NCBI GenBank assembly: GCA_030390025.1
Contig: CM059432.1
Coordinates: 62,374,001 to 62,438,000, forward strand
Direction: 5' to 3'
DNA from: Squalus acanthias
Lineage: Eukaryota
Length of the DNA: 64,000 nt
In this document: piece after piece, positions 1,752 through 57,728 of the stretch
Layout: every line of letters starts with the position of its first letter
Position numbering within the stretch: position 1 is the stretch's first letter
The notes under the pieces: generated by a model
What the model was told of the DNA's origin: nothing
Databases searched by the model: none
Seen by the model: only the letters and a program-made list of their open reading frames with translations
Program-made: the position numbers and the translations under genes

Positions 1752-2494
1752 GGGCCGTATTTTCCGATCGGAGGCTTCCCGCGTGCGGAAGCCTCCGATC
1801 TGGAAAAAATCTACGCACTTGCCTGAGGGCTCCCGAGGTGTGTATAGTTCCGATGCTGGGCCTCTCGAACTCCAAGTGTGCAGGGCCCACGTATCCCAGA
1901 GGCGCATGCGGTGCGCAAGCGTCCCTGGGATCACGTGGGCCATGGGGAGCCAATCAAAGAAGGGAATCTCCCTTCATACACTTGACAGATAGACCTGTCA
2001 AATATATGAATGGAGATCACCCCAAAAACACTTCAAAACATTAAATAAATTTTAAAAATCACATTTTTAAAATTAGTTGAAATTACAATAAATTAAATAA
2101 CTTAAACAAAAATTTAATTTTTTGAAAAAAATAATTAAAGTTTTTTACGGGGCTAAAAATAAACTTATCATTTAAAAATACTTAAAAAAAGGTAAGTGAC
2201 TGAAATTTTTTTTAAAAACTTTTTTTCAACTCTTATCCTGGTAAAAGCAGGCCGTACGCCTGCTTTTACCAGGCGTAAGAATTCTAAGGGTTTTCTGCGG
2301 GCGGAGGGTCTCCAGAAAGCGGAACTATCCGCCCGCAGAGGCCCTTCTCTAGGGCAGGCGTCTGATCTGTCAAGAGCATTCTTGACAGATCGGAAATGCC
2401 GGTTTTCAGCGCATGCCTGAAACCGGCATTTCCGATGTCCCTACGGGTGGGTGCACAGCGCGTACACACCCGGAGGGATCGGAATATCTGGGCC
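1752..2494 (+). mobile_element. Non-autonomous TIR element (MITE family A1, PIF/Harbinger-like)
   Basis: Ends GGGCCGTATTTTCCGATC / GATCGGAATATCTGGGCC; ATT duplicated on both sides; homologous to 20937-21670 and 56753-57506; no coding capacity. Confidence 0.85.
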
Positions 2495-4059
2495 ATTGTT
2501 TTTTGGACAGTTGTTCCATAAGGTGGATCTCAAACAGCTGCTGCCAGATCAAAATAAAACTACAGGATCTTTTAGGAAGATACTTTCTTAATGCGGTGTT
2601 TCTGATCGTCCTGCTCTTCCTGAAGTCAGCAACTGTGCTGCTCTGCTGGCAGCAGCGCATTTTGGTGGTGATGTCATGACCCAACATCATGACGACATCA
2701 CGCATGCTGCCATTCAGTCTGCAGACTGGGTCTGACCCTATCTTCACCTGGTGTTCATTGCACATGCACTGCCCAAAATATTATGGCCAATCTTCACATG
2801 CGTGGAATGGTGGGTCCCACAGTGCATTCAGTTTACAGCCAGAACGGCTAAACACTACAAAGATAAATGGGAGAGCGGCACAGTTAGCCAGCTCTCCCAA
2901 GACTCAGTTTGAAATATAAAAGCAACTATAGACTGGCAGGTTTCTGGATGTAACTCTGCAACAAGCTGAGTTTTTCCAATCTCGGCCATAAAGATGCTGG
3001 GAGGTCTTGATCGGAGGTCATGTGCTTTCCCACAAGGAGGGAAGAAGATTGGGGGATGGGGGGGGGGCAGGAGGGTGTGGGAGAAGTGCTAGAGTCACCC
3101 GTAGGTCAGAATTAAAAATTACAGTCTGCTGTGCATTTATTCTGCTGCCATACATTAATGGCATGGCAAGGAAGTAATGAAAAATTGTACCAAGTAAATG
3201 AATTAAAAATTTCCCCCTCCAGTACCGTACCCGAGTGATATTCTTCACATCAGTCTACATTACAACAGTGACTACATTTCAAAAGTAGTGCATTGGCTGT
3301 AAAGCGCTTTGGGGCATACTGAGGTTGTGAAAGGCGCTAAATAAATGCAAGTTCTTTCTTTAGACAATGAATAATGGCAATCTATTCAATCACTGGGTTG
3401 CTTCACACCCGGGTCTGACCCTGTCTTCACCTGGTGTTCACACAATTTATGCTGTTCAGTGGGGCAGGAGTGAGAAAAAGCCAGCACATAGTAAAAAGCA
3501 GTGGGAGCCCCTGGATGTTTTTCCCTTTCCTAATCCAGGGGCACTGGAGCTATCATTTATTTAGTGTTTTTGTTACAGGGTGTCTGGTGAGACAGAATAT
3601 TGGCACTCCAGCACACTCAACTGGTATCCTCCGACTCCAGGTCACAAAATGAACTGCATCTTATCTGTGCCACTGGAGAACATCTGGGAAATAGGAGGGC
3701 AGCTTAGTCCTGCAATGCTTCTGACAAGTCAGCAAAAGGTTGTCCTCCCAAAGCACTCTGGCTGCTCTCGACTGGGAAGGGTGTGTGACATGGAAAAAGG
3801 AAGAGGAGGAGCCATGAACTAGCAAGCTAATTATTCCATATCCTTTGATGATGATTTCATTAAATTAATGGCAAACAATCAGCTCCATGTACACTACCAT
3901 CTATAAAATAAACCACAGTAATATTTGGGGCCCAGGGTCACTCCTTCAGCCCCATGAAAAAAACCAGACTATAATACCAAGTAAAAATGTTCATAAAGCC
4001 TGCAAAATCCAGATGTTAAGCCTTAATGTAAACCAGCAGTCAGCTGACCTAGTACGTAC

Positions 4060-4220
4060 CTCTCTTGTCATGAGATCCTGTGTCTCAGCTGGATATAATT
4101 CCACAATCTGTAACAATCTAGGGAATCTCAGTCTGGCTTCTCTTGAATTATACTTCAGTGCTTTTAACATATTCTCCACTACACACGCTGGGAACGTCTG
4201 CAGCTCAGGGAAATTCATAA
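4060..4220 (-). CDS. PRKDC: PRKDC exon: [53 protein letters not shown]
   Basis: CTTACAG acceptor, GTACGT donor; 161 nt. Confidence 0.95.
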
Positions 4221-4747
4221 CTGTAAGAAACATAAATTAATTTATTTAAAATCAATCATGAAAGAACAGAAAGTGCATGGTGCACTAACAATGTATTTGT
4301 GATCAACATTACTGTGAAGGTGTGAAAGCTGGAATAAACAGTAAAGGATAAATGCATTGTTCCAACGTAAAAGCAGGGTTCCTCACTAATTTTTGGGTGA
4401 GGGCCACTCTCCTAAAGCCGAGAAGTTAGGGTTCCCATCTGGAAAATGCAAATGGCTTTCAGGTCAAAAGATTGGCTGGGCTCAAGGCCACATCCTTATG
4501 ACGAGGACAAGTCATACCACCCTGCTTTTGTTGATACAACGGTCTCGCAGAAAATCCAGGTAAATATCTTCAGGAAAGGTGGGGAGAGGAAAAGAAAACT
4601 GGTGAAATAAAAGAGGGGGGAAAAAAATGAAAAGCAGAGGAGAAAATGGAAATATTTTTATTTCTTTCAAAAACGGCAGGCAAAAGGGCAAAGGAAATTT
4701 GTGGCACAACTAGTCCCAGTCACCATGGTACCATACGGTGGCATAGT

Positions 4748-5050
4748 GGGGGCAACACGGTGGCATAGTGGTTAGCACTGGTGCTTCACAGCGCCAGGGA
4801 CCCGGGTTCAAATCTGACCTCAGGTAACTGTCTGTGTGGAGTTTGCACATTCTCCCCGTGTCTGCGTGGGTTTCCTCCGGGTGCTCCGGTTTCCTCCCAC
4901 AGTCCAAAAATGTGCGGGTTAGGTTGATTTGGCTATGATAAAATTGACCCTTAGTGTTAGGGGTTGATTAAATATGTGGGGTTATGGGGATAGGATGGGA
5001 TATGTTAGGGGGAATTAAATACGTGGGGTTACGGGGATAGGGTGGGATAG
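4748..5050 (+). mobile_element. tRNA-derived SINE, HE1/V-SINE-like, followed by a CR1 3' tail fragment to ~5190
   Basis: GGTGGCATAGTGGTTAGC A-box, GGGTTCAAATC B-box, TGTGTGGAGTTTGCACATTCTCCCCGTG V-domain-like core. Confidence 0.8.
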
Positions 5051-5488: not shown

Positions 5489-5579
5489 CTGAGCAACAAC
5501 AACAAAAAGAACTCACGAACAGGTTCAGTTACTAACTGCATTTGTGCATCCTTTGGTACAGTTAGGATTTTTTTCCTAC

Positions 5580-5770
5580 CTGCGCTATATCGTCACCGGT
5601 AGCTCCAGAAAGTTTTATAACATCTCTTGCTCGATCCTCCTCAATATGCTGAAGAGCTGATGGGTCTTTATTCAGAGCATTAGCCATAATGTAGTAGGTT
5701 GTACCAAGCAATGTGTTCTGGTCTCTGAGAGCATGTCTATGTGTATTTAGATAATCCACCTCGGTTTCAA
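5580..5770 (-). CDS. PRKDC: PRKDC exon: ETEVDYLNTHRHALRDQNTLLGTTYYIMANALNKDPSALQHIEEDRARDVIKLSGATGDDIAQ
   Basis: CTTACAG acceptor, GTAGGA donor; 191 nt; followed by a 91-bp intron. Confidence 0.93.
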
Positions 5771-6515
5771 CTGTAAGATAAGATGTCTGTTCAAGACAGC
5801 AGCATTTAAATGATGTCTTCATTAACTTAATATTTTTTCTGAAGTGGCTTGGGTGCCTCGTGTGTCAGTTATTCAATATGCCGCAGACTTTTAGTAATAG
5901 GGTGTAAGTTCATACCTATGATTCCACAAACTGATAAAAATATTCATTTTAATCCTTTGAAGACTGCTCTATTTTTCTTACAACCCTGCCTTTTAAAAAA
6001 AAAAGTAATGATTAAAAATAATTTCCCTATTTGTATTTTTCTCTTTCATTTTTCATCATGTGGCCTTTCCTAAGCTGACCAAGCCGGTTGGTTCTCAGGC
6101 CTCTGCTGCTCTTGATTCAGCTGGTGAGCAGAAGCCACATAATATGGGATAATCCATCTTTCTGAACGCCTTCTTTGCTTGTGGAGAAATGGTTTGTTGT
6201 TTCCATCTGATGGCACAGCTGCAGTCAGGATCCCGCCCCCTGTGAAAGGTGTATCGCCCTGCATCTGACTCTCTCTGGTACATGTTGAAGCTATGCCAGA
6301 AGCATGTTCTTTATTTTAAAAATTCTAATTCACAATATTTGCCATTACACAAATTTATGCAAGTCTTCTAAAAGAGAAAACATTTTAAAAAGTCAGCGGC
6401 ATTAAAAAGGTTAAAAACACGCTCAACAGGAAAGCTGTCAGAAAGCTTTCCTTTTGATTTAAAGAATCAACATTTTCGGTTGCTATGGCAATGTTAGAAA
6501 TCTGTCAGCCATTAC

Positions 6516-8208: not shown

Positions 8209-8952
8209 GGCCCGAAAATTAGACCTAATACGTGAGAGTACGCACTGTGTACTCTCGCGTTTTAGGTCTCCAATTGCCGGTTTCCAGCATGCACTGCGCA
8301 TGCACGGGAAACCGGCACTTCGTGAATTCAAAAGGGGGCGGTTCCTAAGTGAACTGCGTGCGCGCTACAGGCTGCGCGCACGCAGTGCACTTAGTGCTTT
8401 GAACGCGCAGGTAAGCATGGAAGATTTTACACATAAAGAAAGGAGGCGTAAGACCCTCTTTTAACAAGGTAAGTAGTTAATTAAGTATTATTTTAAAAAA
8501 TTTTCAACAGGTTTATCTTTTTTAGAGACTTTAAAGAAAGGTAAGCTTATTTTTATAACTTTTAAAAAGATTTTAAATTTTTTCAAAAATTTAATTTTTT
8601 GTTTAAAGTGGTTAATTTATTTAACTATACTTATTTTATTAATGTGATGGCTTTTTTTAAAATTTAATTGAGGTTTAGCTGTTCTTTTGGGGGGGTATAG
8701 AATTCATAGCTTTGACAGCCCTTGCTGTCAAAACTATGAATGAAAGATGGTGTGCTGCCATTGGCTCTAACTGAATCACGTGATCCCAGAGCTTGCACGA
8801 ACTAATTGCGTCTCTGGGTCACGCAAGCACTGCACAGCTGCAGCCTTGAAACTAAAGTTCGTGTGGGCCCGGAGGAAAAATGTAGGCGTGGAGTGAGATA
8901 TCGCAGGGAAGCCTTACCCCCGCGTGAACAGTTAGTGTTTAATTTCTGGGCC
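8209..8952 (-). mobile_element. MITE family A2 (PIF/Harbinger-like)
   Basis: TIRs GGCCCGAAAATT / AATTTCTGGGCC; flanks AAT/ATT; reverse-complement homolog of 10857-11610. Confidence 0.85.
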
Positions 8953-9868: not shown

Positions 9869-10687
9869 GGGCTGGGTTTTGTGAATGGAGGCAAGTTGGA
9901 GGCGGGACTGCTGCTTGTCGTGTCAATGTCCTGCCTCCATCCTCGCCTGACCAATCAGAGGGATTTTCCCCTGATTGAGCTTGTTAAGCCCGCCCTGTGG
10001 GCTCAGCAGGCCAATTAGGGAGGAAGTCACTGACAGACCACATCAACGACAGACTTGCTATCTGTCAAGACTTCTTGAAAGAAGAAATGACAGCATTTGA
10101 CAGCTCTGTGAAGCTATCAAGCACTGACATTCTCTTTAGTTTGATGATTCTTTGTGGTGAGGACTCCTCAAACCTTTCAACTTTGTAAATTTCACATGTC
10201 TGTAGGATCCAACAGCCATTATGTGAAATTGACAAGGAGAATGTCGGCTCTCCCCATCCAGCGCGGCTAAAGGCTGTAGAAAGAAAACAAGGTAAGTGCA
10301 CACTTTTTTAAACTTATCACTCACCTTACATACTTACCACTCCACACTTGCACCCATCACTCACCTCTACACCTTATTTCCAGGTGCCTCCGACCACCGC
10401 AGACCTCCTCCTCCAACCCGACGGGGTCCTCAGAGGTCGGGAAGCCTTCACCGGTGAAGGTAAAATGGCACTAATCCTTTTTTCTGCCTGTTAACTACCT
10501 GTTAACAGGCAGTTAAAAGGATTAAATGCCTTTCCCGCCTCCAGGAGACAGGACCCAAAGCTGCACATCCTCCCGCCTCCTGGCAAAAGGGCACGGAGGT
10601 GGGTTTGCCATCCGCCCCCACTTTCTCCGATTTTACCGGCTGTCCCGGATTCATGCGCGCCTCCTCGGGGCTTGGAAAATCCAGCCC
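9869..10687 (+). mobile_element. MITE family B (PIF/Harbinger-like)
   Basis: TIRs GGGCTGGGTTTT / AAAATCCAGCCC; flanks ATT/ATA; homologous in reverse to 39665-40494. Confidence 0.8.
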
Positions 10688-10856
10688 ATAGTCTTATTGA
10701 GGGTGACTCATACTGGTGCATGGCTCCATAGTCACAGTCATTCCCACAGTACCTCAATCCAAGTGCCTATTCTTCATGTGTAAACTTATGCAGCAACAGT
10801 AGTATTTTTGACCACTGGGTATATTACAGCCAACTCCAATCCGATTTTCACCTAAT

Positions 10857-11610
10857 GGCCCAGAAATTGGAGTTCGATGGTTGCCGCGGGGGTAAGGATC
10901 CCCCGCGATATCGCACTCCGCGCCTACCTTTATGGTTTTGGCCCACACGAACTTCAGTTCCTGGGCCTCTCTCTGGTGCCGGCGCGCAGTGTGTGCGTGT
11001 CCCAGAGGCGCAGTTAGTTCGATGCTACCTCTGGGATCACGTGAGCCAGTTAGAGCCAATGGCAGCACACCATCTTTCATTCATAGTTTTGACAGCAAGA
11101 GCTGTCAAAACTATGAATACAACAAGCCCCCAAAAGAACAGCAAAACCTCAATTAAATTAAAAAAAAAGCCATCACATTAATAAAATAACTATAGTTAAA
11201 TAAATTAACCACTTTAAACAAAAATTTAAATTTTTGAAAAAATTTAAATTCTTTTTAAAAGTTATAAAAATAAACTTACCTTTCTTTAAAGTCTCTAAAA
11301 AAGATAAACCTGTTGAAAATTTTTTAAAATAATACTTAATTAACTACTTACCTTGTTAAAAGGGGGTCCTACGCCTGCTTTCTTTATGTGTAAAATCTTC
11401 AACACTTACCTGCGCGTTCAAACCTGAAAAAAAAACTCAGTGCACTGTGTGCGCACAACCTGTAGCGCGCACGCGGTTCACTTAGGAACCGCCCCCTTCG
11501 CAATACCCGAAGTGCCGGTTTCCCGTGCATGCAGGAAACCGGCACTTCGGGACCTAATACACGAGAGTACACAGTGCGTAATCTCCCGTATTAGGTCAAA
11601 TTTTCGGGCC
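10857..11610 (+). mobile_element. MITE family A2 (PIF/Harbinger-like)
   Basis: TIRs GGCCCAGAAATT / AATTTTCGGGCC; perfect AAT TSD. Confidence 0.87.
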
Positions 11611-12388: not shown

Positions 12389-12759
12389 GGGGTAAAAATT
12401 CAGTTGGTTGCGCCTCCCGTTAGCGCCTTAAGAGGGCGCTAATGGGGCGCAAAGCTGCTAACGCCCGGGCGCAGCGATGTTTGCGCCGCTCGGGAACTTA
12501 ACTAGACATTGTGCGGCGGCGCTAAACTTTACCGCTGCGACCACCTGCGCGCGCAGATTGTGACGTCATTCCATGGTGCAACGCCCTTGTGGCGCCCCGG
12601 AGCGGAAATTGAGTGGCGCCCCCTGCCTTACCGCCTGGCGCATCCAACGACCGGAAGACTGGAACGCTATCAATCGCTGTGGGGCTGGGGGGGGGCGCTA
12701 TTTAAAGGGGGCCTCTTCCTGTCTTTTTCTGTGGTTGACATTTTTGCACCACTCGTTCT

Positions 12760-12791
<32 letters not shown>

Positions 12792-13124
12792 CTTCTGCAT
12801 TGAGTCAACGCTTTGTGAGGTAGTTTTGCCTACTGATCCTAACAGTTGGCCCCCCCCCCGCTTTAAGAACTGGTCGGCGCCAGTGTGTCTGTGTTCCCTC
12901 GCTAACTGGCAGCAGCTGCGCTGCGCTCGCGCTCTGAGTTAGCGCCTCACTGCTCGGCCTTTGCGCCTTAAGACAGGTGTGCAGCGCCTGATTTAGCGCT
13001 CCACTCACCTCCCGGGGCGGTAAAAGTGAAGTTTCCAGTCAGTGGCGATAATTAGCGCCAGGCGCTAATATTTGCGTCCAGACGATATTTGCGCCCCAAA
13101 TGGGGCGCGACCTATTTTTCCCCC
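12389..13124. mobile_element. GC-rich MITE with TAA TSD (PIF/Harbinger-like), containing a (GA)n tract at ~12760-12790
   Basis: TAA|GGGGTAAAAAT...ATTTTTCCCCC|TAA; subterminal hairpins TTAGCGCC..GGCGCTAA and CGCCCCA..TGGGGCG. Confidence 0.8.
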
Positions 13125-13689
13125 TAAGGGTCTCAAAAGTGAAGTTAGATATTTTTAATTTATATTCAAAACTGGCAATTCTTGAATCCTGAGCTCAAAT
13201 TGAGTTTAAAACACCTGTTGTACTTGAACTCGGAGGTTGCGTGCCCTCGAAATAAAAATGGATGAAGAGATATGAAAACATTGCATTTCATACTGGCAAA
13301 CGAGACTGTGCTACTTTGTCTGCTTGCAGCCCCTTTTCTTAATTTGAGTATTTTAACTGTTAAACTCATGTACTGTTCTTGCCTGCACTGTGTGACTTAA
13401 TTCGCACGACATAACTTCCTCTGCTGTTTTGCCTTATTTGGCTGATGAAGTGGATAAAACACCCAATTTTTAAACCACCGAAGTAGGGTTCGAGTGCACC
13501 AAAGCCCTGGGAAAATGGTGGAAATAGGAGGCCTTCAACCACGTGGCTGGTGGCAGCGGAAAGCTGGGATTTGGGGGCTAGTACTTAGGAAGGGGTGAAG
13601 AGGAGTCGTGGCTGGTCTGGCATAGAGGTGCACTCGGGAGTGATCTGAGAGCAGTAGAGTAGTAGGGTCTATGAGTACTCAGGAAACTG

Positions 13690-20936: not shown

Positions 20937-21670
20937 GGTGCAGAAATTCCGATCCCTACGGGTGGGTATGCGCTGTGTACCCACCCGTAGGGACATTGGA
21001 AATGCCGGTTTCAGGCATGCACTGCGCATGCGCTGGAAACCGGCATTTCCGATCTGTCAAGAAAGCTCTCGACAGATCCTCCGCCTGCCCGGGAGCAGGG
21101 CCTCTGCGGGGGGAGAGTTCCGTTTTTGGGAGACCCTCCGCCCGCAGAAAACACTTACAATTCTTGCGCCTGGTAAAAGCAGGCCTGCTTTTACAGGATA
21201 AGAGTTGAAAAAAAGTTTTTAAAATTTTTTTTCCATTGATTTATCATTTAAAAATACTTTAAAGAAAGGTAAGTTTATTTTTAGCCCCGTTAAAAACTTC
21301 AATTATTTTTTTCAAAAAATAAAATTTTTGTTTAAAATACTTAATTTATTGTAATTTAAAGTCATTTTGAAAATGTGATTTTTAAAAAAGTTTATTTAAA
21401 GTTTTACTATGTTTTGGGGGTGATCTCTATTCATATATTTGACAGGTCTTCCTGTCAAATGTATGAAGGGAGATTCCCTTCTCTGATTGGCTCCCCATGG
21501 CCCACGTGATTCCAGGGACGCTGTGAACCGCCTGCGCCTCTGGGATACGTGGGCCCTGCACACCGGCAGTTTGGAGAGGCCCAGCAACGGAACTCTGCGC
21601 CTCCCGGGAGCCCTCCGGTCTAGGCGCAGATATTTCCAGATTGCAGCCCTGCGATCGGAATGTCTGGGCT
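20937..21670 (-). mobile_element. MITE family A1
   Basis: Ends GGTGCAGAAATTCCGATC / GATCGGAATGTCTGGGCT; ATT TSD; reverse homolog of 1752-2494 and 56753-57506. Confidence 0.85.
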
Positions 21671-21911
21671 ATTATTAACTACATTGCTCGCCAAGTGTGT
21701 GTGTGTGCGTGACAAAACAGAAGGGTGCTAATGTTGACCATTGTTTTTGTAAATTACTTTTAAAGAAAGCTTCTGGAGGCAAGGCTTCGTCTACAAAGAG
21801 ACTTCCATTGGATTTCACCAGGCACGTAATCTCTTACATACAATAAACACATCTGAAGTCAATGATGCTAAAACAATTCAAGTGCCCAACACTTGAAGCA
21901 CCTTTGCTCAC

Positions 21912-22100
21912 CTGACAGAAAGGATCGGTCCATATCTCCTCTAAATTTACAGGCATTTTGTCACTGATGTTAACGGTGGAACAGTATTCCAGTGACTTCC
22001 ATTCAGTCAGGTGACTGTAACACTCTAGAGCTGCAATATCCCAAAAGTCTTTCTCTGCATCTGTAGGGTTTCCATCTACCCATTCTTCGGAATTCAGGGC
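21912..22100 (-). CDS. PRKDC: PRKDC exon: ALNSEEWVDGNPTDAEKDFWDIAALECYSHLTEWKSLEYCSTVNISDKMPVNLEEIWTDPFCQ
   Basis: TTTGGCAG acceptor, GTGAGC donor; 189 nt. Confidence 0.95.
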
Positions 22101-22913
22101 CTGCCAAATCAAATCCATACCAACTCTATAATCGCATGTTAAAGATATTACAGTACGATTCATGGAATGCTCCCATTACTATTTACTGCTGCCCTGCATA
22201 ACCAAACCAAGAAATGGAACTACCGTCCTACAACAGAAAAGGCAAAATGACAAGATCCTTTCACAATAAAGACTCTGCCAGGGGAAATAAGAATATTCAT
22301 ACAGATATGATATAAGCAATGCCTGCATCAGTTTTACTTTAATTTTTACTGGATTCATTGGATGAATATTGATGACAAAAGCAATCCATGAATTTGTCCC
22401 CAAATTTGCCGTTTATATGAACCAAAATATTGTTGAACAGGCAAAAAAACTTCAACCAGTGAGATGGATAAGCAGTAATGTTCTGGGAACACCATCACCT
22501 CCAAGTTCCCATCCAAGTCAAACACCATATCCTTCATCATCGCTCGGTCAATATGTCGGAGCTTCCTATCTAATGCTATTGTGGGAGCACCATCACCACA
22601 AGGTTAACAAAAGCTCACCACCACCTTCTCAGTGCAACTGGGGATGGGCAATAAATGCGGCCTTGCCGGTGATGCCCACATCTAGCAAACAAAAAAGAGC
22701 TAAGTTTACAATCCACTGCTGTGGTGTAAATAAAAGACGCAACTGGCCCCCATGGTACACAAAACATATTCAATTCATTATGCTAATATCACCACTTTTT
22801 GAGTAGAGTGATATCTGAGAACAGCAGACTCTTCTATCTTTATCTTTGGAACAGGGAGAGCAGCACTGTTATCACACTGGTCAGATTGTCAGCATTCTCA
22901 CAACCACTTTTAC

Positions 22914-23550: not shown

Positions 23551-23922
23551 CTTGTAAAAAAAAACCAGAACAGAACAGTACTGGTACAGTGCAATACATC
23601 AAAACCTATGTTATTTAATCCTTATTCCCAAATCCAACAAGCAATTATAATAAAACTGATCATTTAATTTCTATAATACATAAATCAGGCAAAAGCACAA
23701 CTTACCCAAGGATAAATAACTATTTAGGTAGATCCAGAATGCAAACTGAGATTAAGTTTAATCAACCAATTAAAACAGAAACAAAATCTATACTTTCATT
23801 TTATCTACTTTTACATAACCTTTAAAAAAAGAACTTAATTCTATATACTTTTACAGTAGGTTTCATATTGTAACATTGCTAAACATTACAGCAACCCCCA
23901 TGACCTTTCCTTTCGCCAATTA

Positions 23923-24279
23923 CAGGAAACTCTTGATTAACCGGCACCCAAATATCCGGAAATCTCTCTTAACTGGCAAAATTCTTGAGTAGGTAACCGG
24001 GGTTTTCCTTCATCTCTCGTTTAAAATTAACTTTAAAAAAACCCCCGAGGCGTTTGCCTTGTATCGGAGCGTGTAGATTGGGAGGGGAATGTGCAGCCCG
24101 GGTAGGCAGCGGACACGACAGATGGTCAGCTGGCGGGGAGACGGAGCTCCGAATGCAGGCGCATGTCAGTGTGTACGGGGCTCTCGTACGTTGGGAGATA
24201 TAACTCTCCATTATCCGGACTTTTTGATTAACCGGCACCACGCCGGTCCCGTCGGTGCCGGTTAATAAAGAGTTTCCTG
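23923..24279. mobile_element. Tc1/mariner-superfamily (pogo/Tigger-like) MITE
   Basis: TA|CAGGAAACTCTTGATTAACCGGCACC ... GGTGCCGGTTAATAAAGAGTTTCCTG|TA; TA TSD; internal repeat of GATTAACCGGCACC. Confidence 0.85.
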
Positions 24280-25639
24280 TATTGATCAACATCCATGTCT
24301 AACAACAACAACAACTTGCATTTATATATCACCTTCAATGCAAGAAAATGTCCCAAAGTGCTTCATAAAGGAAGGAGCAAGAAAAAAGGACTCTAGTTGG
24401 AAGGAAGAGATATGGGGTGATCGAAAGCTTGGTTTTGAAAGTTTTAAAGGGTATAGATTTATGGAGGAAGTTCCAAAGAGGTCTTAGACAGCTGAACATG
24501 TTCAATCACCTCACCCATCTCTCCTTTAAGGTTCTCCTTATCTACAGCCTGCCTAAACCTCCAGAAATTATCCTCACCAAAATCCCTGCTCCTGTGCCAT
24601 CGTCGCCTCGACATGAAACGACTCCTTGTTCAATTACATTAATTTTCACCTGAACTCATCCTCCCCATTTCCACCAACTTCCTTATCCCGTTTACCTCCC
24701 ACAATCTCATTGCTCCCCTTGGTACAAAAACCACCTCCACAACATCAAATCCGCATGGTATAAACTTACAATGACTGGCTGACTGACCAGAGCAGCAGTC
24801 CACTGTCAGATCAGACTGGACCACTGAATCTTCACCATCACAGCAATTCGAAGAACTCTGCGGTTGTGCTTTAGTTATTTACAAAATATAAGTGGTAAAA
24901 TGAAACTTCATGACCACCATTCTTCAGAAATTACACAGGTGCACTATGGAGAACACTCTGGATCTTGCAATTTATGTATTCAAGTTGCATGTTCATTTAA
25001 ATAAATTAATGGTGCATTGGAGAGAAACTTTAAAAAGTGTTTAAATCTCAAGGGCAGACATTGCAGTTTCTATTTAACAATTAAAATTATTGATATAACA
25101 ATGAAATAACAATGGTACTTTGAACAAGGAAGCGTCAATAGTTATAAAACTATCTTCTTCCTAATAAAAAAATAAAGTTTTAGACCTGAAAAATGCAGTT
25201 ACTCCTCCAGTTATCCGTTATCTGGTGACTTCGGCTCCTGCTGGACCTAACATTTTGTGGGTAAATCTATGCCGGCGCATTACTGGCATAAATGTAGGAA
25301 ACTCGGGTGAGCTGGTCTTTAGCACGTGGGCGGAGCTATGTAAATAAGCGGCAGACGGTTTTGGTGGATGTATTTTGGAAGCAGCTCAAACGATCAAGAT
25401 TTGCAAGTAAAACTGGCGTAAATCAGTTAAGTGATAATTTCCTCGGAAAAACGGCGTAACTCCACTCTTACGCCATAGTTATGCCAAAATGTTCCAGCAA
25501 ATTATGGGCCGATAAGCCAAATGGCCCACCTTCTGGGATTCATGGGGCTTCTAATGCCCAAAATCAAAGCCACCCACATAGGTGCCTCTGCCACCTTTGA
25601 CAGTCCTTCAACTCCGAGCCCTTCCTCCTGCTCTCCATT

Positions 25640-34541: not shown

Positions 34542-35320
34542 ATAGGAACATAGGAACAAGAGTGCAGCCCCTCGAGCCTGTTCTGCCATTCAATGAGATC
34601 ATGGCCGATCTGTAGCTTAACTCCATCCACCTGCCTTGGCTCCACATCCTTTTAGACCCTTGTCCAGCAAAAATCTATCAATCTCAGATTTAAAATGAAT
34701 TGAACTAGCATCTACTGCTTTTTCTGGGAGAGAATTCCACACTTCAACCACCCTTTGCGTGAAGAAGTGTTTCCCAACTTCTCCAAAATCAAAATACAGC
34801 GGATGCTAGAAATCTGGAATAAAAACCAGAAAATGCTGGAAATACTCAGCAGGTCAGGCAGCATCTGTGGAGAGAGAAACACAGTTAACGTTTCAGGTCA
34901 CCTGAAACGTTAACTCTGTTTCTCTCTCCACAGATGCTGCCTGAACTGCTGAGTATTTCCAGCATTTTCTGTTTTTATTTCCTAACTTCTCTCCTGAATG
35001 GCCTGGCTCAGATCTTAAGGTTATGACCCCTTGTCCTAGACTCCCCTACCAGCAGAAAAACGTTTCTCTCTATCTACCCTATTAATTCCTTTCAAAATCC
35101 TAAAAACCTCAATCAAATCACCCCTTAATGTTTTCTATTCAAGGAAATACAAGCCTAGTTTATGTAATCTCTCCTCATAATCTGACCCTTGGAGCCCTGG
35201 TAACATTCTGGTGAATCTGTGCTACACTCCTTCCAAAGCCAATATATCTTTTCTAAGTTGCAGTGCCCAGAACTGTACTCCAGATGTAGTTTAACCAGGG
35301 CTTTGCATTGCTGTAGCAAA
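34542..35320 (-). mobile_element. CR1 3' fragment interrupted by a palindromic insertion
   Basis: TAGGAACATAGGAACA tail, CCCCTCGAGCCTG stem, LVKLHLEY remnant. Confidence 0.75.
34785..34980. mobile_element. Palindromic (inverted-dimer) insertion of a short Penelope-like repeat
   Basis: Arms CAGAAAATGCTGG...AACGTTTCAGGT / ACCTGAAACGTT...CCAGCATTTTCTG; imperfect flanking duplication TTCCCAACTTCTC / TTCCTAACTTCTC. Confidence 0.7.
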
Positions 35321-37174: not shown

Positions 37175-37484
37175 CAGGTTGAGCATCCCAAATCCGGCAA
37201 CCTCGGGACCGAGGCCGAGCCGGTTTTTGGGTTTTTCCGGACTTCGGAACGTGTTTCTGATGTCCCTAGTCCGGAAACGCCTGAGCCCAGGTTGCGATAT
37301 TTCCGGACTTCGGACATCAGAAACACGTGCCGAGTCCGGAAATGCCTGGGCCCAGGTTGCGCTATTTCCGGTTTTTGGTAAGCCTCCCTCGGGGTGTCCG
37401 GATTCCGGGACATTTTACGGATTCCGGACCCCTGCCACCAATCGTCCCGGAGTCCGGAACTCCGGATTTGGGACGCTCAACCTG
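37175..37484. mobile_element. Tc1/mariner-superfamily (Tigger-like) MITE
   Basis: TA|CAGGTTGAGCATCCCAAATCCGG ... CCGGATTTGGGACGCTCAACCTG|TA; many internal TCCGGA repeats. Confidence 0.88.
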
Positions 37485-37590
37485 TAGTAATAATGCATTT
37501 GCGGTCTTCAAAAGGTTAAATTATATCTGAATCTAGAAAAACATAGATGTAAAACTAAACTAACATAACAAACAAGCTTCTTGTATTTAC

Positions 37591-38616: not shown

Positions 38617-40730
38617 AGAACATAAGAACGTAAGAATTAGGAGCAGGAGTAGGCCATAGGGCCCTTCAAGCCCGCTCCGCCATTCAATAAGATCATGGTT
38701 GATCTTCGACCTCAACTCCACTTTCCCGCCCGATCCCCATATCCCTTGATTCCCCTAGAGTCCAAAAATCTATTTATCTCAGCCTTGAATACACTTAACA
38801 ATTCATCATCCACAGCCCTTTGGGGTAGAGAATTCCAAAGATCCACAACCCTCTGAGTGAAGAAATTCCTCCACATCTCAGTCTTAAATGGCCGACCCCT
38901 TATCCTAAGACGCTCTAGTTCTAGACTCTCCAGCCAGGAGAAACACCCTCTCAGCATCTACCCTGTCAATCTGCCTCAGAATCTGATATGTTTCAATGAG
39001 ATCACCTCTCATTCTTCTAAACTCCAGAGAGTAGAGGCCCAATCTACTCAATCTATCCTCATAGGACAGCCCTCTCATCCTAAGAATCAATCTAGTGAAC
39101 CTTCATTGCACCGCCTCTAACACAAGTATATCCTTCCTCAGATAAGGAGACCAGAACTGTGCACAGTACTCCAGGTGTGGTCTCACCAAAGCCCTGTACA
39201 ATTGTAGCAAGACTTTCTTACTCTTGTACTCTAACCCCTTTGCAATAAAGGCCAGCATGCCATTTGCCTTCCCAATTTCTTGCTGCACCTGCATGCTAAC
39301 TCGCTGTGTTTCCTGTACGAGGACACCTATATCTCTCTGAACATCAACATTTAATAGTTTCTCACCATTTAAAAAATATTCTGTTTTTCTATTCTTCCTA
39401 CCAAAGTGAATCACCTCACATTTCCCCACATTATACTCCACCTGCCACTTTATTGCCCACCCACTTAACCTGTCTATATCACATTGCAGGCTCTTTGCGT
39501 CCTCACAGCTTACTTTCCCACCTAGCTTTATATCATCAGCAAACTTGGATACATTGCACTCGGTCCTTTCATCTAAATCATTAATATAGATTGTAAATAG
39601 CTGGGGCCCAAGCACTGATCCTTGCGACACCCCACTAGTTACAGTCTGCCAATCTGAAAATAACAGGGGCGATTTTGCCAGCCCTGGGGAGGCGGGACTG
39701 CCGGGAAAATGGCAGAATTTGGGGGCGGGTGCCAAATCTGCCCCTAACCCGCCTCCATGCCATCTTCCCAGGAGGTGGGTAGCCGTCCCGCGCTGGGTCC
39801 CGTCTCCTTGGAGGCAGGAAGGGATTAAAGCCTATTAACTGCCTGTTAACAGGTAGTTAACAGGCAGAAAATAGGATTATCCCCTTATTGCCCCCACATG
39901 TGCGGGCTTCCCGAAGGCTCCAAAACCCGCCAGCTCAGTGAGGCGGGTAGTAGGTCTGCGGGGGTCGGGTGCAAAAGTGTGGTGTGAAGGTAAGTGATGG
40001 GTGCAGGAGTGTAGAGGTGAGTATCTGAGGTAAGTGCAAAGTGTTTTTAAAAGTGTACTTACCTTTGTTTCTTCCTGCAGGCTTCAGTTGGTTTGTATGC
40101 GGAGAGTCTCGCACCTCCGTGTTGCAGATGAGAGATGGCCGTTACATTCTCAGATGCAACAAACATCTCATTTCTGTAAAGGAAAGAAGGTTGATGAGGT
40201 CTTGTATGCAAGACCTCATCAAACTGCAGAGATTGTCACTGTTTGACAGCTTCACAGAGCTGTCAAACGATGACAAATCATCTGTCAAAAATTTTTGACA
40301 GATGAAACGTCATACATTGACGTGTTCTGCAGCCGGCTTTCCCTTAATTGGCCTGCTAAGCCCTCTGGGCGGGCTTAACAAGGTCAATCAAGGGAAAATA
40401 GCATGAGTTGGCCACAAATCGATGGGAGGCGGGACATCGACCCGACAAGCAGCAGTCCCGCCTCCAACGTACCCCCATTCACAAAATCGCCCCCAACCTG
40501 TTTATCCCTGCTCTCTGTTTTCTGTCCATTAACCAATCCTCTAGCCTTGCTAATATATTACCCCCAACCCCATGAGCCCTTATCTTGCGTAGCAATCTTT
40601 TATGTGGCACCTTATCGAATGTCTTCTGGAATCCAAATATACTAAATCCACGAGTTCCCTTTCATCTACCTTGTCAGTTACATTCTCGAAAAACTCTAAT
40701 AAATTTGTCAAACATGATTTCCCTTTCAAT
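38617..40730 (-). mobile_element. CR1 LINE, 5'-truncated, split by MITE B insertion
   Basis: ORF2 remnants GVSQGSVLGPQLF, FADD, RPHLEYC, RGDLIET; AAGAACAT tail; coding sequence resumes after 40497. Confidence 0.92.
39665..40494 (-). mobile_element. MITE family B nested in CR1
   Basis: AAC|AGGGGCGATTTTG ... CAAAATCGCCCCC|AAC (3-bp TSD); removing it restores CR1 sequence. Confidence 0.88.
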
Positions 40731-46201: not shown

Positions 46202-46202
46202 C

Positions 46203-46997
46203 TGGCACTAGCATCTATCCGACAATGTGGAAAACTGTCCAGGTATGTCCTGTCCACAAAAGGCAGGACAAATCCAATCCGGCCAATTACCACCCCATCA
46301 GTCTACTCTCAATCACCAGCAAAGTGACGGAAGGTGTCATCAACAGTGCTATCAAGCGGCACTTACTCACCAATAACCTGCGCACTGATGCCTAGTTTGG
46401 GTTCCGCCAAGACCACTCGGCTCCAGACCTCATTACAGCCTTGGTCCAAACATGGACAAAGGAGCTGAATTCCGGAGGAGGAGTGAGAGTGACTGCCCTT
46501 GACATCAAGGCAGCATTTGACCGAGTGTGGCATGAAGGAGCCCTAGTAAAACTGAAGTCAATGGGAATCAGGGGGGAAAACTCTCCACTGGCTGGAGTCA
46601 TACCTAGCACCAAGGAAGATGGTTGTGGTGATTGAAGGTCAATAATCACAGCCCCAGGACATCGCTGCAGGAGTTCCTCAGGGCAGTGTCCTAAGCCCAA
46701 CCATCTTCAGCTGCTTCATCAATGATCTTCCCTCCAACATAAGGTCAGAAATGGGGATGTTCGCTGATGACTGCACAGTGTTCAGTGCCATTCACAACTC
46801 CTCAGATAATGAAGCAGTCCATGCCTGCATGCAACAAGACCTGGATGACGTTCAGGCTTGGGCTGATAAGCGGCAGGCAACATTCGCGCCACAGAAGTGC
46901 CAGGCAATGACTATCTCCAACAAGCGAGAGTCTAACCACCGCCCCTTGACATTCAATGGCATTACCATCACCGAATCCCCCACCATCAACATCCTGG
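46203..46997 (+). mobile_element. Non-LTR retrotransposon RT fragment (family of 28829-30784)
   Basis: ALDIKAAFDRVWH, MFADDC; truncated at both ends. Confidence 0.88.
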
Positions 46998-47107
46998 TTA
47001 GGTTCACAACAATTAAAGGGGCTGAAGTACTGCTGTAAAGGTAGACCGTCCTTATTGAATCATCTAGCTTTTTCAGTTTGGATTCAATTTTGTTATTAAT
47101 TCCATAC

Positions 47108-47281
47108 CTGTAATTGTCATGTATCCACATGAGGGTATCGTACATTCTCTCTCGGCAAATGGGAGATGGATGAGAAATGAACGCCGTCACTGAACTAAGC
47201 AGCTCTTTCAGTTCTGTTGGCTTTAGTTTGGCTATAATCTTGTACACTATGTCCAAAGAAACTCTCTGCCGTTCTTCATCC
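47108..47281 (-). CDS. PRKDC: PRKDC exon: [57 protein letters not shown]
   Basis: TTTGTAAG acceptor, GTATGG donor; 174 nt. Confidence 0.94.
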
Positions 47282-47399
47282 CTTACAAAGAGAGAATAAT
47301 TAAAGTTTGTCACATTTTTATCCAAATGCCGATCCTTCATTGTGAACCCAGGCTATGTCAGCAGACTATTCAATAATTGGGGGACACCACAGTCAAACT

Positions 47400-50760: not shown

Positions 50761-51039
50761 CTGCAAAATAAAAATATGGCAATAAGCTGAAGAATATTAA
50801 ACTCCAACAATATTATAAACCAACAGTTGGGCAAAGAAAACAACAAGAGTTACACTGCTTTTCTGGAATAATGAGTAATGTGCAATTGTTCTTCAGAAAA
50901 GGAACCACTTCAAAACTATACTTTTCAGCTAATTTTATGGTCATGTTCAGTGAGGATTATTACAGGGCTCCAAGGCTATTGTTGAGTGGTTTAATCTGCT
51001 TGGGTGCGAGTGCCCCACCATGGAGATGCAGGACACTTC

Positions 51040-51593
51040 AATAACATATTTAAATCAGGCTTCCACAGTGCAACTGGGAGCCTCATTTAAAATGTAATAG
51101 TTGCCGTGCAGGTTTCCCACGGCTCGGGGAACCCAGCAATAAAAGGGAGGTGGGAGCTCCCAGCTCAAGAATCGAAGTGCCTTTTCCAGAACTCCTTGTG
51201 GGCCAGGAGGAGCAGGAGTGCTTCCGAACCCCCACCCCCAAGGAAGCCTTCGGCCTCTCTCCTGCCGATCGCAGCCTCTCTCTCCCCCACTGCCCCCCCC
51301 ACCGCAATCGCCGACCTCCCCCCACGCCCAAGCCCCAGTCTCTCACTCCCTCCCTCCATTGGTCTCTCTTGACCCCCCCCACCCACTCAAACCCTGATCT
51401 CATGCTCCCTCCCCACTCCCAATTGCAAGGGATTGTCCCCAAGGGTCCCTGGCTACGGCCTCCTGCCTGCTGGTTTTGCAACCCAGCAGCCGGCCAGCCT
51501 GTCAATTTGGCCAATTGCCAGGCAGAAAACGGAAAGACTTCCACGTTCCCAGGTTTTTGCCGCCCTACGCACCTTCCCTGTAAATATCGGGGC
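51040..51593. mobile_element. GC-rich MITE fragment related to 60633-61252
   Basis: Shared CATTTAAAAT..CAGGTT..GGGAACCC..GGAGGAGCAGGAGTGCTTCC motifs; right end TAAATATCGGGGC; left end unclear. Confidence 0.55.
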
Positions 51594-53207
51594 TGTTGTG
51601 TCTGACCAGGTGTCTAAGGGAGAGACCAAGCCATTCAATTCAAATACAAGCATCTTGTGGGTTTTATTTGATTGGTAGCTCTTTTTGAAGTTAAGAGACA
51701 CATTTAAATTTTATTGGCCCTGGTCATTTTTTGAAAGTATTTCTCAGCCTATCTTCTTCAAATTGGATCATCCATCTGAAGCCATCAAAGACAGCTAGAT
51801 GGTTCAGGACTATGTCAACAACAAAATGTCATGGAAATGTCAAAATTCAGGGACCTTGTCTCCAGTCCCATTTGGATTTCAGTTTTACGCAGCAGAAGCA
51901 ACTCCATATTATTTTCTATCTTCCTATGAGGGCTAACTGAGCTTATTACTGCTATAAACCTATAGTGTGCCGATGTTCCTGTTCACTTATCTATTTGCTG
52001 TTAAATAAATCTATTTATAGCCTTGTCCATAGTCTACTGAAGTGTTTATTCTGCCACCTTTTGAAGTTAAAGGTCATATAAAGGCACTTGATATAAGCAG
52101 CAGCCAAAATGCAGTAACAAGGGTTTTCTGTTCAATCCTGGGGCTCACTAAAAAGTTATCCAGATATTGGGCAATTAAAGGCACACTCTGATCGTAGAAA
52201 GTGAGTGATCGTCCGTAGGATTGGACTGAGAAGTTGAACCGAAGAAAAATAGTAAAAACTTAAAAATGTAATACAGTAGCTTATGCCCATGAAGGGCTTG
52301 AAAGAGCTGCATCAGCTGATGAACAGCTCAAGCTGATATTTAATTAAAAAAATATGCAACATATAATGACCCATAAAGTATGAACACTAAAAATCCCAGC
52401 TTGTTGATGCTGCTCTAATTGCCAACTGTACACTTTTAAGAGACCCCTCCTCAAAGTACATACAATTTGACTGACTTCACTGCAGATGAGTTGAGGTCGG
52501 GATTCAGATTTCTAGCACTTTAACCTCCCACTCAAACCAAACCTGCCCATTCTTTGGGGTTAAAATTCCCCCCAATGTATTTGAAACTGCAAAAATGTAT
52601 GATTCGATGCTTTCTCAACACTAGATGCAAGTAACTCAATTCTAGTATGTAAATAAAGGTCAAACTGCCTCTCCAATCTCCATATTTACTAGTGAGAAAT
52701 TAATGTGTATCCCTAAACAATATGCGGTTTTACACCAAGCATATTTTACATTTCTAGTAACATGGTGGAATAGGTGCACCCTCATGCTGAAGTACACTAG
52801 ATATTGGATGGTGACAACAATTCCTCAAACAGTGACAGGGTAGAGGCCAGATGAAAACTTAAGAAAAGTCAAGTTGCTCCAATTTTGTACACAGTGGTTA
52901 ATAGAAAAACAACACTGGCAGAGACATGTGAGCAAGTCCCCTCCCTGCCTGCCCTCTCACCCAGGAATGGTGTCTGATATAGGAAACTAAAGAGAAAAGA
53001 TCATGAATTTCTTAAATGAGGAAGAGAAATATATATGTTCAATAATAATTACATTGCAATGAACTGATCCACATCAGCTGCGCACCCGCCCACCTCCCAT
53101 GTAACTAATATAAGGCACAAAGACACTTCATCCTCAAAAAATTACTACTAAATGATTCACAAAAAAACAAAGAAGTTGTACTAGTTATTTAAACATAAGG
53201 TGCTCAC

Positions 53208-54710: not shown

Positions 54711-54904
54711 CTGCAGAATTTACAGCAACATTTTCAGATGTGAAGATAAAACATACACCACCTTTCACACCTATAACTGAACACCAGGTGCTACAATACT
54801 GTACTTTATATAAAACATCTTGTTTTTCTTTTTTTTTTGCTATCTTATCCTGCTAAAAGTGTTTCAAATTTTCTACCTCATATTCTTCCCTATATATGAA
54901 GTGT

Positions 54905-55365
54905 GAGCCCGGGCTCAGCGGCAGCACTATCGCCTCAGAGTCAGAAGGTCGTGGTTCAAATCTTAGTCCAGAGACTTCAGCATAAAATCTAGGCTGACAC
55001 TCCAGTGCAGTACTGAGGGAGTGCTGCATTGTTTGAGATGCCGTCTTCCAGATGAGACGTTAAACCGAGGCCTCGTCTGCCCTCTCAGGTGGACAAAAAA
55101 GATCCCACGGCACTATTTTCAAAGACAAGCAAGGGAATTCTCCCTGGTGTCCTGGCCAATATTTATTCCTCAACCAGCATCACTAAAACAGATTATCTGG
55201 TCATTATCAAATTACTGTTTATGGGACCTTGCTGTGCGCAAATTGGCTACCACATTTCCTACATTACAAGAGTGACTACACTTCAAAAGTAATTAATTGA
55301 CTGTAAAGCGATTTGGAACGTTCGGAGGTTGTGAAAGGCGCTGTATAAATGAGAGTTCTTTCTAT
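54905..55365 (+). mobile_element. Full-length tRNA-head Deu-domain SINE (SacSINE1-like)
   Basis: GGCTCAGCGG A-box, GGTTCAAATC B-box, CAGTACTGAGGGAGTGCTGC core, L2-like tail. Confidence 0.8.
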
Positions 55366-55550
55366 TTTTTTTAAATTGTTGGTTCAAACATAAATCACGA
55401 CTTCTGGCTGAAACCCTTCTTTCTGCTAAACCTTCTGCACCCACTTCATTATTCCCCTTAGCCTGACAGCTGGGAGGCATTGAACCACTAGGATTTGTAC
55501 ATGTAAAAGTAATGCCAATGAGACAGTCTGATGCAGAACCCACTGCTCAC

Positions 55551-55702
55551 CTGTAAGGGATAGACAGACAGTCCTTCCAGCACTCAACTACTGTCTTAAT
55601 GATTTCCAGGTTGTGCCTGAACACTGCCCTCTTCTCGTGAAAGGAATTCTTCATCAGAAACTCCAGCAGGCGATTTGCTAGGATCTCATTCTTCAGATTT
55701 CC
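55551..55702 (-). CDS. PRKDC: PRKDC exon: [50 protein letters not shown]
   Basis: GTTAG acceptor, GTGAGC donor; 152 nt. Confidence 0.94.
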
Positions 55703-56752
55703 CTAACAACAATAATCAAGAAATAAATGTAACTCACTCATGGTTTTCCTTCGCTCAGCCTGTACTTCTGTTATCATAGGATCATACAGCACAGAAGGAG
55801 GCCATTCGGCCCATTGTGCCTGCTCTTTGAAAGAGCTATGCAATTAGTCCCACTCCCTTGCTCATTCCCCACAGCCATGCAAATTTTTCTGTTTCAAGTA
55901 TATATCCAATTCTTTTGTGAAAGTTACTACTGAATCTGCTTCCACTACCCTTTCCGGCAGTGCATTCCAGATCATAATAACTCACTGCGTAAAATAATTT
56001 CTCCTCATCTCCACTCTGGTTCTTTTGCGGATTACCATAAATCTGTGTCCTCTGGTTATCGACCCTCCTGCCAGGGGATGGACTCTAGGGTCTGTACAAT
56101 CCCAAAAGGTGGTTGGGGAGGGGGGACTGGGGTCTGGTCACACTTTGGATGAGGTGGTACTTCTCCTCCTGTCAAGATGGATGACCATGCTACCAAGAAA
56201 ATCTCCATCTAGCAGCCTAGGGGTGACCTGCCTATTGAGGGGAATGAAGCTTGAGGATGCTTTACTCCAGACACCAATCTCAGCTGGATGCCACTTTGTC
56301 CAATGACTAAGCAAGACTGCGCAATGGCCAAATAAAAGTCAATTTTCAGAGAACTGACAGGGTATTCAATCTCTGCTAACTTCAGGGACATTCTAAATTA
56401 ACTTGAAAAAGTTCCCAGATAGTCCAATGATACGAAGCCAAAGCAGTAAGGCACTACCTCCTTACGGTGACCTCAGACTAATTAGCTTTAGTGCACTCAG
56501 AAGTCAGATTTACGACCTGGCTTCTGAGTTGCATTAAGAGGTTTTGTATTGATCTACATTGGAAATCGCTCTGCATTGACACGAAAGCAGCTATATGCTG
56601 AAACAGTAAAAGACAACCAAAACAGACAGGAACCTAAGATGTCCAACACTCTCTTACCAGACCTCCTTGGCATTTCCCACTTTTACCAATTCCTTCATTT
56701 ATATAAAAATGTTAAATGATACCGATACTTACAATGTTTTAGTAAATACATT

Positions 56753-57728
56753 GGCCCAGAAATTCCGTTCGCAGCCCTCCCGCGGGCGGAGGGCTGCGAT
56801 CCGGAAAGATCTGCGCCTGGACCGGAGGGCTCCCGGGAGGCGCAGAATTCCGTTGCTGTGCCTCTTCAAACTGCCGGTGCGCAGGGCCCACGTATCCCAG
56901 GGGCGCAGGTAGTTCGCAGCGTCCCTGGGATCACGTGGGCCATGGGGAGCCAATCAGAGCAGGGAATCTCCATTCATAGATTTGACAGGAAGACCTGTCA
57001 AATCTATGAATAGAGATCAGCCCCAAAACATAAGTAAAACTTCAAATAATTTTTTTTTTTAATCACATTTTTAAAATAACTATAAATTACATAAATTAAC
57101 TATTTTAAACAAAAATTTAAATTTTTGAAAAAAATAATTAAAGTTTTTAACGGGGCTAAAAATAAACTTACCTTTCTTTAAAGTATTTTAAAATGATGAA
57201 TCAGTGGAAAAATTTTTTTTTTTACTTTCTTAAACTATTAGCCTGGTAAAAGCAGGTCTTGCGCCTGCTTTTCTAGGCGCAGCTGTTCCCGACTTACCTG
57301 GACTGATAAAACTGTGAAATACAGAAGTTTCTGACGTACGCGCTGCCTATCCGGCGCAGGCGTTTGTCCAGTCAAACCTTTCTGCAGAGAACGGAAGTTC
57401 CGGTTTCCAGCGCATGCGCAGTGCATGCATAAAACCGGCACTTCCGCTGGCCCTACGGGCGAGTACACAGCACGTACACACCCGTAGGGAACGGAATTTC
57501 TAGGCCGATAGCAAAATACTGCGGATGCTGGAAATCCGAAATAACAACAGAAAACGCTGGAAAAACTCAGCAGGCCAGGCAGCATCCGTGGAGAGAGAAA
57601 GAGAGTTAACGTTTCAGGTCGAAAGGTCATCGACCTGAAACGTTAACTCTCTTTCTCTCTCCACGGATGCTGCCTGGCCTGCTGAGCTTTTCCAGCGTTT
57701 TCTGTTGTTATTTTGGAATTTCTAGGCC
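56753..57728 (+). mobile_element. MITE family A1 (core 56753-57506) whose right TIR was duplicated by a nested insertion
   Basis: ATT|GGCCCAGAAATTCCGTTC ... GAACGGAATTTCTAGGCC [insert] GGAATTTCTAGGCC|ATT. Confidence 0.88.
57507..57714. mobile_element. Palindromic Penelope-like insertion with 14-bp TSD
   Basis: GGAATTTCTAGGCC at 57493-57506 and 57715-57728; ~80-bp near-perfect inverted arms around AAGGTCA. Confidence 0.78.

Follow-up and report, generated by a model that had tools for sequence, protein, structure and literature searches.

Chained hairpins with compensatory stem changes in a putative Harbinger-type MITE family of Squalus acanthias

How can a mobile element exchange the sequence of a hairpin stem and still keep its pairing? 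This question is raised by a 64,000-bp stretch of Squalus acanthias DNA (contig CM059432.1, hereafter the window), for which an earlier sequence-only inspection, the original prediction, had proposed five copies of a miniature inverted-repeat transposable element (MITE) built of hairpins. All five copies (c1 to c5) were found where they had been placed, and the present analysis rests on them. Each has two GC-rich arms (~260-270 bp) flanking an AT-rich core. The architecture is unusual in having about nine hairpins per element, compensation at the level of lineages and visible scars of inverted copying. Concerted change of both sides of a stem is an old problem; template switching has been proposed as its cause, but in RNAs that have a function its effects and those of selection are difficult to tell apart.

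Pairing and compensation in the hairpin chain

The copies had been described as chains of local palindromes, and indeed 5-11 local hairpins per copy, some of them AT-rich, were obtained at a score of at least 9. At a score of at least 11, 3-7 hairpins per copy were counted; when each copy was shuffled 100 times by segment with dinucleotides preserved, the means were 0.07-0.41 and no shuffle had more than 2. Of the 37 window hairpins at this score, 30 fall in the 5,593 bases made up by c1-c5, the nested foldback and two copies of a second family, while the other 58,407 bases hold 7. The copies form two subfamilies, A (c1, c4 and c5; 74-83% identity) and B (c2 and c3; 88%), with 60-64% identity between A and B.

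Twelve stem segments comprising 156 positions were used for counting compensations; they were drawn from the same copies being tested, a choice that inflates the tests. Under the null, right-arm changes were scattered inside each stem with transitions favoured. H5 of c2 and c3 is ambiguous in register and was left out of the main count; counted in, it gave one spurious compensation. Two different Watson-Crick pairs were found at 19 of the 156 positions (3 in H1, 3 in H2, 1 in H3, 2 in H4, 4 in H8 and 6 in H9), compared with five in the original prediction, whose two quoted hairpin pairs proved exact (three compensated pairs in the left hairpin, two in the central one). Between c5 and c3, 7 of 62 pairs were compensated where a mean of 1.29 was expected, a level attained in 1 of 100,000 permutations; the comparison of c4 with c2, which has a branch in common with the former, gave 10 of 62 (mean 2.41; 0 in 100,000), and that of c1 with c5 gave 7 of 109 (mean 1.36; 1 in 100,000). 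For c1 and c4 the count was 3 of 123 (4,669 in 200,000 permutations). When H9 was counted with a 3-bp insertion/deletion on both arms, c5/c3 gave 6 of 71 (36 in 200,000), pairing being kept as in the ungapped count. In a five-way alignment of four helices, 91.1% of cells were paired and 13 of 61 pairs had changed on both sides, more than in any of 500 shuffles (0/500) and in slid controls (0-4). Further pair types, by contrast, were about as many as in the shuffles (17 against 15.6; 172 of 500).

The closest sisters behaved differently from the lineages. Between c2 and c3, none of the 14 changed pairs was compensated (12 one-sided and 2 double-unpaired, over 81 positions). At three stem breaks of c5 (57430, 57431 and 57460), the commoner letters of the family, taken from contigs of public sequencing runs, restore the pairs; the shares of the pairing letters were 0.25-0.98 over three runs, with just 0.25 for 57430 in one run. 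The run variants are unphased, and 40 of 188 variant rows were covered. Because the sisters lack compensation and the c5 breaks are paired in the family letters, the pairing belongs to the source lineages; these observations support that it is kept there and lost in resident copies after insertion. The claim that stems change and yet keep pairing holds between lineages, with many changes left uncompensated (14 one-sided of 123 in c1/c4 and 12 of 81 in c2/c3), and the claim that palindromy itself is maintained holds along source lineages but not for the resident copies, which decay. In c2 and c3 alike, H5 has decayed. In H8 of c2 (8267-8325) the arms mismatch at 4 of 17 pairs, and the right arm matches the loose-end consensus of run X16 and departs from the left arm, which suggests a mosaic or half-converted hairpin.

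Some further features of the copies were recorded. Between H3 and H4 (1928-1955, 11034-11067 and 56928-56955), an E-box (CACGTG) precedes a CCAAT box, and the H8 loop contains the palindrome GCGCATGCGC; we take all three to be promoter-like motifs. The observed/expected CpG ratio is 0.70-0.95 in the element arms and 0.38 outside. Splice-donor-like motifs occur one to four times per copy (c3, 11274-11410; c2, 8410-8550; c5, 57166 and 57292) and also at 39989-40063, those in the cores of c3 and c5 running in the sense direction of the host gene. In the H7 and H9 slots, the loose ends of runs X8 and X16 carry still other sequences, with position 57389 noted in X8.

Proposed inverted copying and its alternatives

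Traces of copying in inverted orientation are present in the copies. In c1, a segment is inverted relative to c4 and c5 (Table 1), flipping a splice-donor-like motif; aligned to c4 in reverse complement, it agrees in 31 of 34 columns, with a score of 19 inverted and 8 forward (16 and 8 against c5; c2 and c3, at 9 and 8, do not discriminate). A 5-bp inverted repeat flanks the inversion; its halves match perfectly only in c1 (ACTTA/TAAGT), whereas those in c4 do not (ACTTA/TAAAT). H9 differs between A and B by the swap of an entire outer block on both arms, stem extensions are present only in A (perfect 9-bp in H3, near-perfect 6-bp in H4), and the H1 and H6 slots hold unrelated hairpins in different lineages. 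Hairpin tips are deleted by 17 and 8 nucleotides in c4 and by 11 in c1 and c3. The compensations cluster, with 3 in H1, 3 in H2 on the c1 line and four adjoining pairs at the H9 base.

Such patterns have precedents. According to the part covered of Monttinen and Loytynoja (PMC8794818), template switching yields multiple compensations, stem extension and inverted loops, and the multi-change pattern is enriched for it; the covered part of Potapova et al. (PMC8755829) reports human-chimpanzee microinversions of 17-33 nucleotides between inverted repeats. The clustered compensations, the stem extensions and the 33-nucleotide inversion between short inverted repeats are alike here, and several compensations on one branch as well as an inversion between inverted repeats, the marks of template switching, were both observed, the branch placement resting on five copies. 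Unlike those systems, which in the parts covered are RNA genes and unique DNA, the present one is a mobile, non-coding, multi-copy element that has about nine hairpins and shows no sign of functioning as RNA; the string 'transpos' occurs 0 times in the text of PMC8794818.

We give an even chance to the reading that arms are copied in inverted orientation within source lineages and that selection at the level of the element filters the products, which together would explain the hairpin covariation. A polymerase would briefly copy one arm from the other, by template switching or by microhomology-primed fold-back synthesis, so that a double-sided change arises in one event. This arm copying would happen mostly in source copies, plausibly in gap repair after excision; an origin of MITEs by gap repair is mentioned in the covered part of a preprint (bioRxiv 10.64898/2026.05.26.728016). 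Amplification would then act as a filter by which short cores and the motif TTCCG[A/T]T are kept, probably bound by a Myb-like/transposase complex, while the other parts of the stems may drift in step. With about half a chance of being correct, the covariation can accordingly be read as a mutational signature plus element-level selection and not as the sign of a host RNA. Of the options left side by side in the original prediction, template switching gained from the microinversion and the block swap, protein sites gained from invariant cores and a motif switch (below), and structured RNA or single-stranded DNA did not gain.

Several points weigh against this explanation. Inversions in the loops of the GC-rich hairpins were looked for and none was found. 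The link to gap repair is our inference. There are five copies only, and the two A-versus-B comparisons have one branch in common; between c4 and c5, just 1 of 95 pairs was compensated (71,570 in 200,000 permutations, P ~0.36). At 10 of 19, compensations of transversion type do not significantly exceed the 39% in ribosomal RNA (p=0.16). In organism C (run X8), the left H4 arm has two changes (56979-56980) at a share of ~0.7, the partner positions falling outside the 40 of 188 variant rows covered. Mismatches are also shared: a G-T in H3 of all A copies and of the loose-end consensus of two organisms, two mismatches in H4 of c1 and c4, a C-T in H6B, and TT/TT in K6, a hairpin of the second family. 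Since these persist, correction is not continual. Finally, break-induced repair is preferred over template switching for microinversions in the covered part of PMC8755829; either of the two is inverted copying.

Selection for sequence is another explanation. Despite 40% divergence, H4 has 13 invariant pairs out of 17 and H8 has 10 of 17, with the invariant cores TTGACAG and CCGGTTT, and TTGACAG recurs in H4, in H7 and in the second family. A copies carry the motif TTCCG[A/T]T at both ends and at three inner positions, 4-5 times in each, compared with 0.14 per kb outside; its variable base is A at 5 of 5 homologous sites in c1, T at 4 of 5 in c5, both termini included, and mixed in c4. The T of c5 pairs across the two termini and breaks a pair in H1. 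Such a concerted switch is outside short-range copying, and a binding preference or end-to-end copying can explain it. Taken together, the invariant cores and the switch suggest, as far as sequence can tell, that protein-binding selection acts too. If it acted alone, each hairpin would be a two-fold protein site in which point mutations follow diverging partner proteins (an element Myb-like protein, the transposase or host factors) and the best-bound copies amplify. The density and switch of TTCCG[A/T]T, the recurrence of TTGACAG and the invariant H4 and H8 pairs all fit, Myb-like Harbinger proteins do bind terminal or subterminal DNA (covered parts of PMC9179366 and of 10.64898/2026.05.26.728016), and mPing mobility is tuned by internal sequence (covered part of PMC9921582), although its authors argue there that the internal effects are not sequence-specific. 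Still, the stems have no single common motif, the orientation and spacing of the TGACAG half-sites vary, entire blocks and even complete hairpins have given way to paired sequence of unrelated make-up, TTCCG sites number 0 in the B copies, and the c1 inversion is left unexplained; we regard binding sites alone as a possible but unlikely account. The simpler idea that the palindromes are one repeated transposase site, named beforehand as a ground for giving up the prediction, does not describe the stems, which are unrelated in sequence; the two recurring motifs cover just parts of H4, H7 and H8 and the ends. Selection might instead act on DNA structure, serial cruciforms or repair-intermediate hairpins raising excision, end synapsis or copy gain, so that any paired sequence suffices. 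This would fit pairing kept while sequence was exchanged in two families, the same slots filled by different hairpins, and a strand symmetry suited to double-stranded extrusion; in addition, positions 57332 and 57370, paired in the predicted fold of c5, switch from T-A to A-T (shares 0.25/0.27, 0.99/0.83 and 0.25/0.20 in three runs, the register chosen post hoc). Against it, the lineages amplified despite the decay of H5 in B and the H4 mismatches shared by c1 and c4, and neutral copying gives the same pattern; judged from sequence features, we find it rather improbable. Only tentatively, and with a probability as low as that of binding sites alone, could the Harbinger-type MITEs here be called 'structured DNA', whose amplification would depend on a row of hairpins or cruciforms of any sequence, with template switching renewing them and every burst selecting them. 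That the second family is built alike suggests a design rule common to both. If true, a cut-and-paste transposon would have RNA-like covariation with no RNA involved, and if pairing itself drives mobility, Harbinger transposition would have a new cis-rule.

An RNA, or a DNA fold of one strand, under folding selection would also covary. Folding of c1 as DNA gave z = -15.5 and that of arm segments as RNA z = -2.7 to -11.5, CCAAT, E-box and splice-donor-like motifs are present, and in 7 of 10 arm segments the opposite strand is slightly favoured. Yet folding is strong on both strands of the arms, and all but one of the 10 segments show a strand difference within 1.3 standard deviations of the shuffles, the exception standing at -2.7. 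Mismatch types gave no G-U excess (9 G-T against 12 A-C, p=0.66, in a small sample), the search of Rfam suggested earlier returned 0 gathering-score matches in the 64-kb window, and resident copies decay. Moreover, DNA transposons are known to move without an RNA intermediate. A functional RNA thus appears unlikely, because mismatch types and folding are strand-symmetric and copies decay after insertion, and we give this explanation as a whole very little credence; covariation screens can nevertheless mistake a DNA transposon for structured RNA. Equally slight is the chance that small numbers, stem choice and mosaic copies produced the pattern as an artefact: n is 5, the stems were chosen post hoc and c2 H8 looks mosaic, but the slid controls stay far below the observed 13 double changes, perfect stems of 12-18 bp contain internal double changes, the pattern is replicated in the second family, and mosaicism moves variants without creating complementary ones.

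Element class and relatives

The element behaves as a non-autonomous MITE of Harbinger/PHIS type, an ordinary class, and sequence features support this assignment because of its AWT duplication and its Harbinger3_DR-like flanks. The predicted AWT target duplications are exact in 4 of 5 copies, that of c2 being imperfect (AAT/ATT, one mismatch); the 3-bp A/T-rich duplication is as expected for PHIS. Terminal repeats were found as well, although the ends of c4 do not both start with the predicted GGCC; the repeats are imperfect, 12-18 bp long and of the PHIS kind (start G or A, below 60 bp), with the left end of c1 deviating at 5 of the first 12 bases. In the flanks of the five copies, a purine occupies +1 in 10 of 10 half-sites, T +2 in 8 of 10 and T +4 in 7 of 10 (p = 0.001, 0.001 and 0.009), these positions having been taken from the known Harbinger3_DR consensus. 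None of the 13 frames of at least 90 residues overlapping c1, c3, c4 and c5 matched Pfam, and c2 has no such frame; no transposase was seen among the 29 of 92 long window frames that were scanned.

In the covered part of Han et al. 2015 (PMC4482050), the duplication is TWA in PIF/Harbinger, CWG in NuwaI, ANT in Pangu and A|AT|T in ISL2EU. The hallmarks of PIF/Harbinger that had been seen in the element hold for PHIS in the wide sense, the AWT being the ANT of Pangu type and not the TWA of PIF/Harbinger proper, which is ruled out by AWT in all copies. NuwaI was likewise rejected, the duplication being AWT instead of CWG, and ISL2EU (AAT left, ATT right) fits only c2, 1 of 5. The copies have the ANT duplication and the GG- or AG-starting ends of Pangu, a group itself defined by transposase phylogeny. 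Terminal repeats of Pangu (11-40 bp, starting GG or AG) are also similar, but no vertebrate is among its 15 listed hosts and no internal palindromes are described in the part of PMC4482050 covered. With zebrafish Harbinger3_DR and its non-autonomous partners (PMC3016246), the element has in common a 3-bp duplication in a palindromic target, the flank consensus and short terminal repeats starting with G; it differs in the triplet (AWT here, CWG there), in having no coding sequence, and in its hairpin chain and compensation, neither of which appears in the part of that paper covered.

A further comparison is mPing, a Tourist-like MITE. Its target duplication is of TWA type. Like the present element it is non-coding and mobilised by PIF/Harbinger, with internal sequence that could affect mobility, according to the covered part of PMC9921582; as a difference, the text of the paper has 0 instances of 'hairpin', of 'palindrom' and of 'secondary structure'. 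No report of serial compensated hairpins in a MITE was found in the literature searched, which excludes most subscription papers and Repbase Reports. A scan of metagenomes with the H4 pattern gave 0 stretches. Matches to the E-box/CCAAT pattern at one locus in metagenomes and one in viral contigs were dismissed as chance, the similarity being confined to the 27-34 bp of the pattern.

Host gene, abundance and neighbouring elements

The window carries the gene for DNA-PKcs (PRKDC), whose exon frames were identified by matches to solved structures and Pfam (Table 1). Copies c2-c5 are positioned between identified exons, and c1 is probably intronic too, because ~750 further residues of the human protein are still to be encoded below 5565. 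Part of c5 was present in 20 of the 24 listed sequencing runs (9 studies, eight coded organisms; one at a small share), and the contigs matched to c5 numbered 13,539 in run X3 and 36,690 in run X8; run X22 contributed 2 reads. The family is very abundant and common to several related organisms. Its fragments number in the tens of thousands, each copy has about nine hairpins, and inserted copies decay neutrally, which makes template switching testable at scale.

Table 1. Coordinates of the element copies, their hairpins and other features in the window
Feature	Position	Strand	Details
c1	1752-2494	+	subfamily A; duplication ATT/ATT; H1 1766-1800, H2 1810-1846, H3 1884-1941, H4 1966-2017, H5 2237-2273, H6A 2294-2339, H7 2364-2391, H8 2389-2436, H9 2438-2478
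Microinversion in c1	2163-2197	.	33 bp; relative to c4 and c5
c2	8209-8952	-	subfamily B; duplication AAT/ATT; H4 8702-8741, H6B 8345-8394, H8 8267-8325, H9 8221-8269
c3	10857-11610	+	subfamily B; duplication AAT/AAT; B-type left hairpin ~10885-10907, H3 10999-11037, H4 11079-11118 (perfect 18 bp), H6B 11436-11485, H8 11505-11552, H9 11551-11597
c4	20937-21670	-	subfamily A; exact 3-bp duplication; H2 21594-21630, H4 21423-21474, H6A 21103-21148, H7 21051-21078, H8 20995-21053, H9 20953-20993; tips of H1 and H5 shortened by 17 and 8 nucleotides
c5	56753-57728	+	true extent, nested insertion included; subfamily A; duplication ATT/ATT; H1 56767-56801, H2 56810-56846, H3 56885-56941, H4 56966-57017, H5 57248-57272, own paired segment 57331-57371, H8 57390-57448, H9 57450-57490
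Foldback repeat inside c5 right end	57507-57714	.	208 bp; 14-bp duplication 57493-57506 = 57715-57728
F1, second G-terminal element family	9870-10690	+	hairpin chain; ends approximate; 10056-10084 resembles c1 H7
F2, second family	39666-40495	-	matched arm changes relative to F1 in K2, K3, K5 and K6; ends approximate
DNA-PKcs (PRKDC) host gene	5565-60465	-	exon-bearing frames 60124-60465, 46855-47352, 21837-22175, 5565-5864

The end of c5 had been placed at 57506, where GAT and not ATT follows; the ATT duplication comes after 57728. The 208-bp foldback has the terminal 14 bp on either side of it, so that the copy has two right ends. We take this foldback to be a candidate Penelope-like repeat, and relatives of it lie near 34785-34981 (likewise a foldback) and 62411-62508.

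In the second family, the matched arm changes in four hairpins were read by eye, and the TT/TT mismatch of K6 is common to F1 and F2. The family has TTGACAG hairpin modules in both orientations, together with GC-box-like repeats and donor-like GGTAAG motifs. Three further GC-rich, G-terminal MITE-like elements (60634-61252, 50965-51595 and 12390-13150) have 2-3 weaker hairpins each; the dense chain is therefore not universal among such elements here. A TA-flanked element with long terminal repeats (23921-24281), presumably Tc1/mariner-like, has its own hairpin containing AACCGGCAC, the core of H8. Lastly, an inverted-repeat element rich in TCCGGA was noted at 37180-37486, with a 34-bp arm pair at 37244-37333.

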